A stretch of DNA of 64,000 bases from Alphaproteobacteria bacterium (GTDB taxonomy: Bacteria; Pseudomonadota; Alphaproteobacteria; JAAXGF01), in the NCBI GenBank assembly GCA_963555825.3, contig CAUVXB020000002.1, forward strand, positions 2,208,001 through 2,272,000. Direction: 5' to 3'. The notes below the pieces were generated by a model. It did not search any database. It was given only the letters and a program-made list of their open reading frames with translations, and had not been told where the DNA came from. The first letter of the stretch is position 1. Each line of letters starts with the position of its first letter. Positions 58,825-64,000 of the stretch are shown here, one piece after another. The position numbers and the translations under genes are program-made.

Positions 58825-60412
58825 ATGACACAGGAAAGCGCTTTCAAATCCTGGCTCGAGCAAGGTGGGGCTCAGACCGTCGCCGGGCGGAACACCCGTG
58901 CTTCAGCCATCCGGACGATCGAACGGAAACTGGAAGAGCTTGGAATGCCGCTCCGGGATGTGGACGGAGCTTGGGAAGCGGACCGTTTCGAGTCGCTGCG
59001 CGAACGGCTACGCCGGATGCGGGAAGATGCCCGCGATGGGGGACAGGACTACCGGATTCTGATGCCGGACTCCGAGAACCCCCACAAGCGCCTTTCCAGC
59101 TGGCGCAGCTGGCTGGGGCAATATGGCCGGTTCCTCGCCGGCTAGCCTCCGGGATCAGCCAAAGATGCCGACCGCATCCGGCAATATGTCCTCGAACACT
59201 ATATCAAGCCTGCCCGGGAGGAACGTCGCGGACAGGCAGAAGTTCTCGTGCGCGACGTGAACGAGGCGCTCGGTCTGAACGAGGCATGGCCGAACATCTG
59301 TCAGGCTCTTGCCGGGCACAAGTTCCAGGAGCTCGCACAGATTCCACCGCCCGAGCGGATCGGCGCCGATCAAAGCTCGGCCACAGTGTTTCGGTTCGAT
59401 CTGAGCAATCATCGCGTCGACAGGACGGCTCTCGACCAGTTGCGCGATCGGTTCGTCGCTGCTTGTCCTGATTTCAGGAGCTTCGTCGATCCCGGAACAG
59501 GATGGGCCAGGGACGAGAAGGCCTACAAGGTGGCGGCTTCCGAACGGGTGCGGGCCGCGCTTGAAGAAGGTGGAGACGACGAGGCCCTTGGAAAGGCCGT
59601 CTTCGAGGTACTCAAGACTGCAGCAAGGGACGGCCCCTTCGTACGATGGCAGACCGAGGACTCGATCGCCAAGCAGTCTCCCCAGCTGCTCGGTGAGTTC
59701 CATGCAGTCATCGGGCGACTGATCCGGTACGGCCAAGCCGCGGAAGAAGTCCTTTCGCAAGCGTTCGATACGCTCGACGCCCTGAAGGAGCGAGGCGCCG
59801 CATCGCTGACCTATGGCGAGCGACTCAACATCCTGTTTTCTGCGCTATCCATGGTGCGCCCCAGCGAGGCAGGTCCCCTCAAGATCACGCGGTTCAACGA
59901 GGCCTGGGACAAGCTCACGGGAGAGAAGCTCTTCGTCGAAGCCACGGCCAACATGGCATCGGATTATCGCCGCTTCGCGGCCGTCTTCTCCGAGCTCTTC
60001 GAAATCATGCGGGACGACTGGCAGTGGCAGCCACAGGACTGGCTGGACATACAGGGATTCCTCTGGATCGCCCTCGACAAGACCGCCAGCGCACCGCCTG
60101 AGACAGACGCTTCGCCCGACACCAGCGAAAGCCGAGAGAGGCCCAATGCCGATTTCCCCCATGAACCTCATCCTTTACGGACCGCCCGGCACAGGTAAGA
60201 CGTTTTCCACTGCCGCGGAGGCCGTCAGGCTTTGTGGTGAGCCTGTGCCCAAGGATGCGAGCCCCTGATGCAGGCCTATCAACAGCTCCTCGCGGCGGGA
60301 CGTATCGAGTTCGTCACCTTTCACCAGTCGTTGTCCTACGAGGATTTCGTGGAAGGCCGACAGCCGATGACCGGGTCGGACGAAGACGACGACTCCTCCT
60401 CCGCTGGCTTCC
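58825..60412 (+). pseudogene. McrB-like AAA+ GTPase (type IV restriction), degraded
   Basis: In-frame TAG at 59143, frameshifts near 60140 and 60260, [29 protein letters not shown]; truncated by IS3. Confidence 0.8.
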
Positions 60413-61429
60413 TGGACCCTGCTGACGAAAGTGGAGACGTCCTGCGATAGGATTTTGATCGCAGGAGGTGCAAATGTCGAAGCAGAATGGGAACAAGGGC
60501 CGGCGGTTTGATCGGGCCTTCAAGGAAGAAGCCGTCCGTCTTTTACAGACGAGCGGGCGCAGGCAGCGGCAGATAGCAGGAGATCTTGGGATCAGCGTCA
60601 GCGCGCTCGGCCGCTGGGTCACAGAATTGCGTGAGGAGGATTTGCTTTCCGGTCCGCATGAGGATGCAGCGAAGGAGATTACCCGCCGACGCCGAGAGCG
60701 TGATCTGGCCCGTCAGGAACGTGATCTGCTAAAAAAAGCGCTGGCCTTCTTCGCCAGGGAAAGTCGATGAGGTTCCGGTTCATCGACGCGGAGAGGGCCG
60801 GGTTGGCGATGCCGATATTCCGCCTGTGCAGACTGCTGCAGGTCAGCGTCTCAGGCTTCTACGCTTGGCGCAATCGCGGCCCAAGCCAGCGACAGCTCGA
60901 TGACATGGTTCTACTCGCCCATGTCCGGGCAGCCTTTCGGCGCAGCCGCGAGAGCTACGGTGCAGAGCGGGTCCATCACGAGCTTGCCGAGAATGGGATC
61001 GAGGTTGGACGCCATAGGGTGGCTCGGCTGATGCGGGGAAATGGGTTGTCTCCAAAACGGAAACAGAAGTTCAAAAAGACGACGGACAGCCAGCACAACA
61101 AGGCCGTCGCATCGAACCTTCTCGACCAGAACTTCTCCGCCGAGGCACCCAACGAGAAATGGGCTGCCGACATCAGCTATATCTGGACGGCACAGGGCTG
61201 GCGGTACCTGGCCGTCATGCTCGACCTCTACTCCCGGCGCGTCATCGGCTGGGCCGTGGGCGCTCGCATGACCAGCGACCTGCCGCTCAGGGCGCTTAAC
61301 CGTGCTATCGGGCTGCGCCAACCTGGCGCCGGTGTGATCCACCATAGCGATAGTGAGTATCTGCGGGCCGGTTCCCTCGGAGTGACCTGACCCGCACAGC
61401 GATAGACGCATCTAGACTGATAGGGCCGG

Positions 61430-61590
61430 CCGCCCTTGGGTGGCTTGACCCACACTCAGATCGACCGAGATGTCATTCCCCGGACATGTCGGCCACCCGG
61501 GGGCAACCGGTTGAGGTTCCGACCTCGACCGACATCGTGACCTGATGAGAGCCCGGCCTTGGGCGCCCCGTCACTGTCGTGTCCGACATC
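61430..61590 (+). ncRNA. Predicted IS110 bridge RNA (target- and donor-binding loops)
   Basis: Stem GCCCTTGGGTGGC/GCCACCCGGGGGC enclosing CACTCAGAT and TTCCCCGGA; second stem-loop with ATGAGAGC matching the right end. Confidence 0.65.
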
Positions 61591-61640
61591 GGCTGAGTTC
61601 GGAGCCAACCCCTCCACCCATCATAGACCAGGGGGCGGAC

Positions 61641-62696
61641 ATGGCGACTGCAACAGCCGACAACATCCAGATCATCGGTGGCGTCGACACCCACCAGGAC
61701 CTGCACACCGCCGCCGTCGTGAGCCACGACGGAACGGTGCTTGGTACCGAATCGTTCTCCACCACCCGAGCCGGCTACCGGGCGATGCTTCGCTGGTTCC
61801 GCTCTCATGGCGAGCTGCTTCGTGTAGGAGTGGAATCCACCGGTACCTACGGAGCCGGCATCACCCGGCACCTGGCACTCTCGGGTATCCCCGTGCTCGA
61901 GGTGACCGGGCCGGACCCAGCCAGCCGAAGAGCCAAGGGCAAGGACGACGCCCTGGATGCGATCTCCGCGGCCGAGGCGGCGCGCACAAGACGCCGGGTC
62001 CAGGTGGCCAAAGACCGTTCCGGCACCGTGGAAGCCCTGCGGGTGCTGCGAACAACGCGAAAGACGGCAATCAAGTGCCGCCGCGCGGCCCTGCAGCAAC
62101 TCCACAACACCATCGTTGCCGCACCGGAGGAAGTGCGTGACCAGGTCCGCAACCTCACCCGCATGCAGCGCCTGCGTACCTGTGCGGCCTGGAGGCCGGA
62201 CACGGTCGGCTATCGAGACCCGGTGGTCGCGACCAAGCTCTCCCTGAAGTCCCTCGCCCGCAGAATCCTCGACATCAACGACGAGATCGCTGAACTCGAC
62301 CGGTTCATCGTCCCCTTGGTCGAGGAGCTCGCCCCCAGTCTGCTTGAGCTCGAAGGCGTGGGCACCGAGAACGCAGGCGCAGTAATGGTCGCCGTTGGGG
62401 ATAACCCGGATCGGCTCCGCTCCGAGGCGAGCTTCGCCATGATGTGCGGCGTCTGCCCGATCCCCGCATCGAGTGGGAAGACGCAACGCCACCGTCTCAA
62501 CCGCGGAGGCAACCGCCAAGCCAACTCCGCCCTGCACATGGTCGTCGTGTGCCGAATGCGAACCGACGAGCGGACCCGAGCCTATGTCGCTCGCAGGACC
62601 CTGGAGGGGCTGTCCAAACGCGAGATCATGCGCTGCCTGAAGCGTTACGTGGCCCGCGAGATCTACCGCGTACTCACCGCCCCATCGAGTGCTTGA
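61641..62696 (+). CDS. IS110 family DEDD recombinase/transposase
   Basis: GGVDTH, VGVESTG, KDDALDA, PIPASSG, HRLNRGGNRQAN. Confidence 0.95.
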   Translation: MATATADNIQIIGGVDTHQDLHTAAVVSHDGTVLGTESFSTTRAGYRAMLRWFRSHGELLRVGVESTGTYGAGITRHLALSGIPVLEVTGPDPASRRAKGKDDALDAISAAEAARTRRRVQVAKDRSGTVEALRVLRTTRKTAIKCRRAALQQLHNTIVAAPEEVRDQVRNLTRMQRLRTCAAWRPDTVGYRDPVVATKLSLKSLARRILDINDEIAELDRFIVPLVEELAPSLLELEGVGTENAGAVMVAVGDNPDRLRSEASFAMMCGVCPIPASSGKTQRHRLNRGGNRQANSALHMVVVCRMRTDERTRAYVARRTLEGLSKREIMRCLKRYVAREIYRVLTAPSSA

Positions 62697-63029
62697 CAAA
62701 CATGAGAGCGTCCGGGGAAGCCAGTACTGCTCAGACGCATACCAGGCGCGCCTCGGTGAACTCGGTTTCCTCGCCTCAATGAGCGGTAAGGGAAATTGCT
62801 ATGATAACGCCGTCGTCGAGACCTTCTTCAAAACCATCAAGTCAGAACTGATCTGGAGGACTGTGTTCATGTCAAGAAGCCAAGCTGAAACTGCCATAGA
62901 CGGATACATCGATGGGTTCTATAATCCAGTCCGTCGGCACTCGACGCTGGACTTCACAAGCCCCGTCAAATTCGAGGCAGAAGCAATGCAAACGGTGTAG
63001 GGCGCCTCCACTTTTCCTGGATGGGTCCA

Positions 63030-63851
63030 GTTTATGAGTTTCTGGAAGCGGAAGGCTTCAAGTACGCCATCCGGCTTCCGGCCAACAAGGTGCTGCACGA
63101 CAGCATCGCGCACCTGCTCAAGCGCTCCGTCGGTCGGCCGCCGAAGGAAGTTCGTCGGTATTACGCGAACTTCAGCTATCGGGCCGGTAGCTGGACGGAG
63201 CCCCGCCGGGTCGTCGCCAAGGTGGAGTGGCACTCAGGGGAACTGTATCCCCGCGTCGGCTTCATCGTCACCAACCTGAGCCGTCCTGCCGAGCGGGTTG
63301 TTGCGTTCTACAATCAGCGCGGCACTGCCGAGCAATGGATCAAGGAAGGCAAGAACGCCATCAAGTGGACGCGGCTGTCATGCCGTTCGTTACGCAACAA
63401 TGCCGTCCGGCTCCAGCTGCATGCACTCGCCTATAACCTCGGCAACTTCATGCGTACCCTGGCGTTGCCCGATGCCGTGGAGCAATGGTCGCTGACGACG
63501 CTGAGGGAGAAGCTGGTCAAGATCGGTGCGAAAGTTGTCAGCCATGGCCGGTACGTCACATTTCAATTGGCCGAGGTTGCAGTCACCAGAAGCTTGTTCC
63601 AGAAAATCTTGAGCCTGATTGATGATCTACGACGAAGACCCGCTCCGGCGTAGGCCGAGGGAATCGACGGCAAGGAGATTGCGACACGAGAGGTGTGTCT
63701 GGATGGCAAGAGAAACGACCAAATGGCCTTCCACGCGCTGGCCGATTACCAAAATCATGTCATCGGATGGCTGCAATGGGAACAGAGTTCCCTTGGAGAT
63801 GGGGCCGTGGTACGATTTCCGCGAATTTGGATGTCATCTGGGGAATGTCGG
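63030..63851 (+). mobile_element. IS1380-family element, 5'-truncated (transposase remnant to 63653)
   Basis: YAIRLPAN, RRVVAKVEWH, YNQRGTAEQWIKEGK, AYNLGNFMR; right end ATCTGGGGAATGTCGG. Confidence 0.88.
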
Positions 63852-63994
63852 TCAAGATCGCCGGCACGCTGGTGCATGAATTGATCCACGCTTGCGGGAG
63901 ATTCAATCACGGCGCCGAGTTTGCCGCGGACCGCCTGCCCGCGTGGGCTCGGCGGATCATGGTCAAGCTAGGCCTGCCCTGTACCCACAAGTGA
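63852..63994 (+). pseudogene. SprT-like HExxH metalloprotease fragment
   Basis: IAGTLVHELIHACGRFNHGAEF directly after the IS1380 end. Confidence 0.5.
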
Positions 63995-64000
63995 CGCTGG

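Follow-up and report, generated by a model that had tools for sequence, protein, structure and literature searches.

What directs one insertion sequence (IS) to the catalytic codons of another? The question is raised by a 64,000-nucleotide stretch of genomic DNA from an Alphaproteobacteria bacterium (contig CAUVXB020000002.1, positions 2,208,001 to 2,272,000 of the forward strand; hereafter, the window, numbered from its first base), in which an IS110-family element splits the transposase gene, orfB, of an IS3-family element that we call IS3-A. The features of IS3-A and of the intruder described below all lie on the forward strand. The intruder is very probably an IS of the ISEc21/ISMch6 clade that carries a bridge RNA (seekRNA) in its left end and entered IS3 orfB by a precise, guided insertion. 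RNA-guided homing into IS3 transposase genes is well supported by the comparison of guide and flank sequences among relatives. The initial annotation of this locus had proposed a bridge RNA programmed against the H-S-D|R-G codons, inactivating IS3/rve, and homologous copies, flank codons, and guide-target covariation agree with that proposal.

The interrupted gene can be followed on both sides of the insertion. The left part of IS3-A (60413..61351) opens with a left inverted repeat, TGGACCC..., and contains orfA (60474-60770) and the N-terminal part of orfB up to the H-S-D codons; its outer limit was set by the start of the alignment among genomic copies together with the inverted repeat in the sequence. 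Pfam assigns HTH_Tnp_1, HTH_21, and rve to these upstream pieces, the last two in the orfB piece. The left target (LT), CATAGCGAT (61343..61351), closes this part and reads CAT AGC GAT, i.e., His-Ser-Asp, with Asp serving as the DDE motif's second D. The right part (62713..63029) begins with the right target (RT), CGGGGAA (62713-62719), where the orfB reading resumes at CGG GGA AGC (62713-62721), and comprises the C-terminal part of orfB (Pfam rve_2 and rve_3) and the right inverted repeat, ...GGGTCCA. Between the two parts lies the IS110-family element of 1361 bp (61352..62712), with a left end (LE) of 289 nt and a right end (RE) of 16 nt. Both ends were searched by BLAST against 68 related loci; in most of them, the left-end alignments begin at base 1 and the right-end alignments run to the final base of that end, which delimits the element as 61352-62712.

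The sequence that preceded the insertion is seen in contigs of public sequencing runs, compared over 60900-63000. Contigs of three of the four runs (X15, X16, and X17, RNA-type libraries whose contig cover is not taken as proof of transcription) join 61351 to 62713, skipping exactly 1361 bases with 0 shared letters; in one contig that spans the joint, the shorter side measures 255 bases. The joint gives the pre-insertion sequence as CATAGCGAT|CGGGGAAGC, with GAT as the Asp codon and no target duplication, and indicates that uninterrupted IS3-A copies exist elsewhere. The IS110 insertion is precise, without duplication, between the codons for Asp (the second D of DDE) and Arg, and splits orfB; the initial annotation had placed the element correctly at the Asp codon of H-S-D|R-G-S. 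As expected of the IS110 family, the element has a long non-coding left end and a short right end, without terminal inverted repeats or target duplication.

The recombinase gene (61641..62696) encodes 351 amino acids with the domain pair of the family, an N-terminal RuvC-like DEDD domain (DEDD_Tnp_IS110, PF01548, E = 2.6e-25) and a C-terminal Tnp domain (Transposase_20, PF02371, E = 3e-17). Its closest PDB structures are two bridge recombinases, IS621 (E = 7.5e-10) and ISCro4 (E = 5.4e-10), and the alignment with ISCro4 sets a ...SSGK... stretch against the SG of the latter, the predicted region of the catalytic Ser. The longest open reading frame (ORF; 61545-62696, 383 aa) opens at an ATG within the left-donor guide described below; conservation and an AGGGGG at 61630-61635 argue for 61641 as the real start.

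The non-coding left end is predicted to fold into a bridge RNA. RNAalifold, run on 32 distinct left ends (alignment A1), returns a target loop, a linker hairpin, and a donor loop whose stem pairs 61536-61541 with 61581-61585. The proximal 5' stem strand of the target loop (helix A, 61426..61449) pairs with 61488-61510, with GCCCTTGGGTGGCTTGAC (61432-61449) and GTCGGCCACCCGGGGGC (61488-61504) on the two strands; 94.2% of the cells of this stem are paired across the 32 left ends, compared with 24-46% when the partner is slid. The loop holds a putative left-target guide, CACTCAGAT (61453..61461), an inner hairpin, GAC/GUC (61463..61474), which is invariant in 32/32 left ends and hence offers no covariation to judge it by, and a putative right-target guide, TTCCCCGGAC (61476..61485). 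Bases 61476-61482 of this right guide are complementary to RT, and bases 61483-61485 (GAC) to the terminal triplet of the right end (GTC), i.e., the handshake or core pairing; in reverse complement, the guide runs GTC|CGGGGAA, the right-end triplet followed by RT, and TTCCCCGGA (61476-61484) is the exact reverse complement of TCCGGGGAA (62711-62719). The donor-binding loop (61536..61585), also found by RNAalifold, has an outer stem, CGUGAC/GUCCG, and an inner hairpin. It would present the left-donor guide ATGAGAGC (61545..61552), identical to 62702-62709 in the right end, and the right-donor guide TCACTGTC (61571..61578); the left donor ATGAGAGC and a tail, GTC, make up the right terminus of the element (62702..62712). 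Guide polarity is that of IS621: the left guides are same-sense and would pair with the bottom strand, and the right guides are antisense. The target-loop stem, CACTCAGAT, TTCCCCGGA, the donor guide ATGAGAGC, and a further segment, CACAGCGATAG, all lie where the initial annotation had located them. An Rfam scan of 60000-64000 at E <= 1 gave only a chance lncRNA match and no matching bridge-RNA model.

Evidence that these segments address target and donor DNA comes from the relatives. The search of genome contigs returned the 68 loci mentioned above, with recombinases 41-100% identical to the query (mostly 66-99% for those used in the flank analysis), in assemblies labelled as Alpha- and Gammaproteobacteria, Palauibacter/Longimicrobiales (Gemmatimonadota), Actinomycetota, and others. 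Their termini are conserved, the left end beginning with AGTGAG... and the right end finishing with ...CATGAGAGCGTC. At least one flank was read at 57 loci, with our own genome counted, and homology to OrfB was scored by phmmer at E <= 1e-3. By this measure, 46/57 loci have at least one flank related to the OrfB halves of IS3-A. There are 29 different left tails and 23 different right heads. Aligning the flanks of homologous copies bears out the HSD-RG-type codons expected in the initial annotation: in 47/53 left flanks, the final codons specify H-[STA]-D or N-T-D, 27/46 right flanks start with [RQN]-G-x-[QE]-[YF], and the insertion points in relatives are the H-S-D|R/Q-G or N-T-D|Q-G codons. 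Guide-target covariation is seen as well. On the donor side, the left-donor guide equals right-end bases -11 to -4 in 11/14 combinations (three sequence classes), and the right-donor guide, in reverse complement, is identical to left-end bases 1 to 5 in 14/18 (four classes). The right-guide triplet agrees with the right terminus in 45/46 elements, seven of these being ATC/ATC. The 9-mer before [CT]GACC in the target loop follows the left flank at L034 (9/9), L040 (9/9), L062 (8/9), and L071 (7/9), which are dissimilar flanks. These sequence comparisons showed that all four putative guide segments covary with target or donor DNA. Pfam searches of the short flank fragments at L034 and L049 (F-H-A/S-D | N-G-S-E-Y) for another rve family gave no hits.

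At the window copy itself, the loop guide CACTCAGAT, a TCN-serine version of the motif, matches the left flank at only 5/9. The initial annotation took this figure as tolerance of left-guide mismatches, which is probably the wrong reading, since a second segment, CACAGCGAT (61395..61403), matches the same flank at 8/9 and lies on a duplicate of the stem strand, which has the same 3' partner; extended to CACAGCGATAG (61395-61405), it matches the left junction at 10/11. This putative upstream left-target guide follows helix B (61368..61391), an upstream copy of the 5' stem strand of the target loop, which pairs with 61488-61510; the 3' stem strand of the target loop (61488..61510) is a partner shared by helices A and B. 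The 5' half of the loop is present twice, as GTGACCTGACCCG-CACAGCGAT-AGACG beside GTGGCTTGACCCA-CACTCAGAT-CGACC. We consider it probable from these sequences that two alternative target-loop 5' halves, each a stem strand with a 9-nt left guide, compete for one 3' half with its single right guide, CACAGCGAT reading AGY-serine and CACTCAGAT reading TCN-serine. With slightly less assurance, we favor the view that the bridge RNA is a natural two-way switch that arose by tandem duplication, in which mutually exclusive helices address two versions of the motif and the two slots are reprogrammed independently between lineages. Such a switch would let one recombinase-RNA system address TCN and AGY serine codons, or H-S-D and N-T-D transposase classes.

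The structural evidence for helix B is of several kinds. It is present in the minimum free energy structure of the entire RNA. Its duplex reaches -19 to -40 kcal/mol in 32/32 left ends, values attained by shuffled strands in 0-3 of 200 trials, and on alignment A1, 95.3% of its cells are paired, with six double-changed pairs, against 19-52% in slid controls; on all five measures, 0/500 shuffles attain what was observed. At L032 and L036, column 162 of the shared 3' strand changes from A to G, and both 5' partners (columns 32 and 106) change from T to C. Constrained folds put conformer B lower in 21/32 left ends and conformer A lower in 11/32, often only a few kcal/mol apart.

The match to flanking DNA was evaluated for 39 distinct flank/guide combinations by sliding through 282 windows per left end and recording where a window shared 8/9 bases or more with the left flank of the same element. 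Such windows occur only at the loop position (11 combinations) or at the upstream position (9), and at no other left-end window. When the loop match is 6 or lower, the upstream match reaches 8 or more in 9/17 combinations; when the loop match is at least 7, this happens in 0/22. The mean best left-guide match is 7.33, compared with 6.41 after shuffling of targets and 6.95 after shuffling of the upstream guides alone, and 0/10000 shuffles of either kind reach the observed value. Palauibacter-type elements carry AACACTGAT or AATACTGAC in the upstream slot and are inserted in N-T-D targets. Insertions in DNA other than an IS are also informative. One metagenome-assembled genome (MAG) with a single element type has three such insertions, two at CACAGCGAT and one at CACAGTGAT, where the upstream guide matches 9, 9, and 8 of 9 bases and the loop guide only 6/9; a fourth is at CACTCAGAT, where the loop guide matches 9/9.

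The initial annotation would have counted insertions in unrelated sequence against guided targeting. Sites of this kind do exist, at L004 in our genome and at L010, L013, L015, and L018 in a related genome, and each matches one of the two left guides at 8-9/9; at L004 and L015, the loop guide CACTCAGAT matches 8/9 and 9/9, respectively. These five loci rule out that the element is confined to IS3 genes.

A metagenome scan contributed 80 further loci, of which 59 were taken in by pattern-based parsing and 21 did not fit the target-loop pattern; 28 distinct combinations had a left flank and 10 of the 38 had none. L122, L147, L081/L082, L105, L136, and L157 were parsed by a different left-terminus rule from the other metagenome loci. 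AGY-serine flanks (L083, L085, L116, L144, and L122) go with CA[CT]AGCGAT in the upstream slot and a TCN-type loop slot, and N-T-D flanks (L129, L137, and L139) with elements whose upstream slot reads AACAC[TC]GAT. Over the 67 combinations pooled from both sets, TCN targets are carried by the loop guide in 26/26 cases, AGY targets by the upstream guide in 10, the loop guide in four, and neither in one, and ACN targets by the upstream guide in seven, the loop guide in four, and neither in one. In 53 of the 67, a guide of the same element carries the flank's middle-codon class, against a shuffled mean of 29.2 (0/10000), although shuffle counts such as these are not probabilities because the sequences are related and the hosts differ in IS content.

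Beyond that limit, several observations weigh against guided homing and its two-guide form. No rve-homologous flank was found in 11/57 loci (L004, L010, L013, L015, L018, L024, L030, L034, L049, L062, and L071), and the flanks of L022, L024/L025, L039, L056, L129, and L156 match neither guide above 6/9. Our own genome contains 1705 unoccupied sites that match one left guide at 8/9 and 40 at 9/9, some within element copies, so left-guide identity alone does not predict insertion. The RT match is weak, averaging 4.07/7 against 3.73 when shuffled (0/10000 shuffles reach it), with 3-5/7 at non-IS sites. Among the six metagenome combinations of the dual type with a loop match of 6 or lower, the upstream guide reaches 7/9 in four and 8/9 in one. 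ISEc21, the sole member of the clade studied experimentally, has no helix B (duplex of -17 kcal/mol or weaker), and conformer B places ~85 nt between the left and right guides, a geometry seen in no solved complex. In addition, the donor core, TC, differs from the target core, AY, whereas IS621 shares CT between the two.

Part of this evidence can be read otherwise, with the loop guide (61453-61461) alone reading the left target at a cost of four tolerated mismatches and with 61368-61403 acting as a 5' stem-loop or as an off-state that sequesters the 3' strand. ISEc21 works with an RNA of 58-74 nt that has a single bottom-strand match and no helix B, some insertions match neither guide well, and an alternative pairing could be regulatory. 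Against this stand the reciprocal behavior of the two segments (9/17 and 0/22), the confinement of matches of at least 8/9 to these two windows of the left end, the three independent non-IS sites of one genome that follow the upstream segment at 9/9, 9/9, and 8/9 and the loop at 6/9, and the N-T-D codons read by the upstream segment of Palauibacter-type elements that sit in N-T-D targets. IS621, moreover, tolerates mismatches poorly (PMC11208160). A single tolerant guide therefore seems unlikely to us. Far less credible is that the recombinase protein picks its site by a DNA motif, leaving the RNA-like complementarities incidental: the invariant GAY|C/A junction context would suit such a protein, but nothing beyond it does, guide and target covary across lineages while the protein family stays constant, and RNA dependence has been shown experimentally for ISEc21 and IS621 (PMC11187229; PMC11208160).

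The assembly of this genome raises a different alternative. In its 2 contigs (6.04 Mb), we found six full copies of the element, 99.7-100% identical, and three fragments. All IS3-A left halves that reach the Asp codon (6/6) continue into the element, and no uninterrupted IS3-A or intact IS3-A orfB is present in this assembly. The six could descend from one insertion that was later amplified, whether IS3 transposase acting in trans carried it as a composite or duplication and recombination multiplied it. The near identity of the elements, matched by 99.4-100% identity of the IS3 halves around six copies, favors this account, as does the loss of the IS3 right half or the rearrangement of several copies, which indicates recombination around them. 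The IS3-A right half directly follows the right end only at L001, the window copy, and L003; at L005 it is still present, with an IS30-like insertion 12 bp past the right end, and L002, L006, and L008 are rearranged. Yet the assembly offers no intact IS3-A orfB as a transposase source, and the element has moved on its own, as shown by the copy at L004 in non-IS DNA (flanks CCATTCAGAT|...|CGCGGATCACG, within an opposite-strand gene) and by the right-end fragment at L009, which adjoins the R-D-S-Q-Y codons of a different IS3 orfB. We regard amplification as possible, with the balance tilting against it, and the family-wide pattern is untouched by it. Other IS3-like orfB genes in the genome are unoccupied, reading AACTCGGAC|CAGGGGG (five), CATTCCGAC|CGCGGCA (one), and CATTCGGAT|CGCGGCT (one), and a guide matches them at only 6-7/9.

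On the guided-homing reading, the element would excise as a circle, whose RE-LE junction would build a TTGACA-17-GAGTAT promoter. The two hexamers lie at opposite ends of the element: TTGACA (-35; 62693..62698) is in the right end, overlaps the stop codon, and is conserved in relatives, and the -10-like GAGTAT (61355..61360) is conserved in alignment A1. They would face each other at 17-nt spacing only in the circle junction, where, by analogy with IS621 and ISEc21, they would act as the junction promoter. The contigs compared over 60900-63000 showed neither an RE-LE joint nor sites at which molecules begin or end, a result that, for assembled contigs, bears neither way on circles or RNA ends. 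The RNA would load the DEDD/Ser recombinase and base-pair with CAY-(TCN|AGY)-GAY | CRG-GG, with, if both left guides act, the upstream guide CACAGCGAT reading AGY-serine targets such as the IS3 here and the loop guide CACTCAGAT reading TCN-serine targets.

The junctions themselves are uniform. In ~47 loci, the left junction reads ...GA[T/C]|AGT and the right ...G[T]C|C/A. A core dinucleotide common to both junctions, of the IS621 type, is absent, as only the second base can coincide. All junctions seen keep the target pair (AT or AC) on the left and the donor pair (TC) on the right. These are the expected top-strand products of cleavage 3' of the core and would fit, by analogy, the inheritance of the top strand only. 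A 2026 preprint proposes for IS621 that the top-strand product alone is inherited.

Several loci depart from the usual arrangement. At L006, L012, L020, L026, L027, and L041, the IS3 right half is missing and the right flank starts with AGT, like the left end of the element; at L111, L113, and L138, of the enterobacterial type, it starts with AGTAAG. The left flank of L024/L025, TTCATGAGAGCGAAT, resembles the right end of the element, CATGAGAGCGTC, rather than transposase codons, and both left guides match it at 1-2/9. The AGT-starting right flanks and the L024/L025 left flank may be recombination products at half-matching pseudo-sites, with the AGT-starting right flanks perhaps reflecting deletions or inversions through a pseudo left junction. 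L029 and L036 exceed the usual length of 1294-1384 bp between ends: L029 measures 2734 bp, its left end being broken after ~80-90 nt by ~1.37 kb of other DNA, and L036 measures 1553 bp.

The surroundings of the copies are themselves rich in mobile DNA. The IS30-like element at L005 (18-1488 of that locus; contig C1, ~228652-230122) has a 472-aa ORF (Pfam HTH_38, E = 1.9e-18; rve, E = 2.4e-06) and lies 12 bp 3' of the IS110 right end within IS3-A, with CCAG on both sides; the same junction is found at L011. The same IS3 gene thus carries two nested insertions. At L005, the first base past the right end is A (AGGGGAAGCC), compared with C (CGGGGAAGCC) at L001, L003, and L011, for the same IS3-A target; this A equals the first base of the element's left end, and the change from CGG to AGG is synonymous. 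In the window, 63021-63653 encodes the 3' part of a DDE_Tnp_1_4 transposase (profile 231-434 of 435, E = 4.2e-61) that starts at the right end of IS3-A (63029), so IS3-A appears to be inserted in yet another IS. On the other side, 59813-60450 holds ORF pieces in two frames that continue into the left end of IS3-A (60413). They contain a P-loop (GPPGTGKT) and ...FHQSLSYEDFVEG...; their only Pfam match is a sub-threshold AAA_25 (E = 0.0017), and they may resemble McrB-type GTPases.

The initial annotation was not aware of a description of this target, but it had already been published for ISEc21, whose insertion around the codons for the second D of DDE in IS3 elements was shown experimentally (Siddiquee et al. 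2024, Nat Commun, PMC11187229). Homing itself is known, therefore, from a 56%-identical relative, and the copy here is a new and distant representative of the same kind. Our comparison adds breadth: catalytic-codon homing extends over Alpha- and Gammaproteobacteria, Gemmatimonadota, and Actinomycetota assemblies and at least 29 IS3-type genes, and in this genome all copies of one IS3 are knocked out. The duplicated, alternatively pairing half-loop with its own guide may be new; its pattern is consistent in two data sets, and the open-access papers searched and the main text of PMC11187229 (where the word 'alternative' occurs 0 times) contain no description of a second left guide or an alternative fold. 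If the two-guide reading is true, the half-loop would make this the first bridge RNA in nature to have a choice of two left guides and would show how an RNA-guided element handles synonymous codons in a protein-defined target. It would open a wider range of IS3/rve transposase genes to invasion, and would offer engineered bridge recombinases a compact route to two target specificities from one RNA.

The closest studied systems are ISEc21 and ISMch6. The recombinase here is 56% identical to the RefSeq 'ISEc21 family' type, found in E. coli genomes within genes annotated 'IS3 family transposase', and 57% identical to an ISMch6-family gene on the Methylorubrum extorquens CM4 plasmid pCMU01 (NC_011758.1). 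Like the element here, ISEc21 has an upstream non-coding guide-RNA region, causes no duplication, and uses the same IS3 target codons; its right end finishes with GCGTC and its left end starts with AGT. The donor guides belong to different classes (AGAAGGGC in ISEc21, ATGAGAGC here), and ISEc21 has a single left guide, CACAGCGAT, in the loop, whereas our element has CACAGCGAT upstream and a TCN-type guide in the loop. By sequence, the element is a clade relative of ISEc21 and ISMch6 and not the same IS, a call that leans on the identity thresholds of ISfinder. The right flank of ISMch6 reads CAG GGA TCG CAA TAC of an IS3-type orfB, and the left flank of that copy is not IS3 orfB. ISMch6 shares the duplicated arrangement, i.e., upstream CACAGCGAT, a perfect 17-bp helix B with the loop 3' strand, and the loop guide CACTCTGAT.

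The main text on ISEc21 reports that the upstream non-coding region is required for circle formation and transposition, that insertion occurs without duplication, and that the circle has a junction promoter (PMC11187229). In the 74-nt seekRNA, the match to the bottom strand lies 5' of the match to the top strand, and ISEc21 remains functional with a 58-74-nt RNA and a single bottom-strand match (PMC11187229). The element here departs from such a single match, with two left-guide-like segments on duplicated stem strands. The same source describes ISMch6 as 72% identical to ISEc21, with three altered bases in the bottom-strand match (PMC11187229); given the loop segment CACTCTGAT and the upstream CACAGCGAT, these 'three altered bases' correspond to an AGC-to-TCT serine switch in the loop slot.

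More distant comparisons are offered by IS621 and ISCro4, which share the domain pair of our recombinase as distant homologues (E ~1e-10). The IS621 RNA comprises target and donor loops, in which the left guides read the bottom strand and the right guides the top strand (Durrant 2024, PMC11208160; Hiraizumi 2024, PMC11208158), and its natural targets are repetitive extragenic palindromic (REP) elements (PMC11208160). Handshake bases in the right guides match the incoming strand and favor insertion (PMC11208160; PMC11208158; PMC13626964), and the right-guide triplet that matches the right terminus here follows this published logic. IS621 has a single target-loop 5' half and a CT core common to donor and target; the element here has neither. 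Among other IS110/IS1111-family elements with a DEDD recombinase, IS4321/IS5075 insert in the inverted repeats of Tn21-type elements. IS1383 inserts in the inverted repeats of IS1384 (cited within PMC11208160). These elements, like the one described here, use another transposable element as their landing site, but they target its terminal inverted repeats and not a catalytic coding motif.

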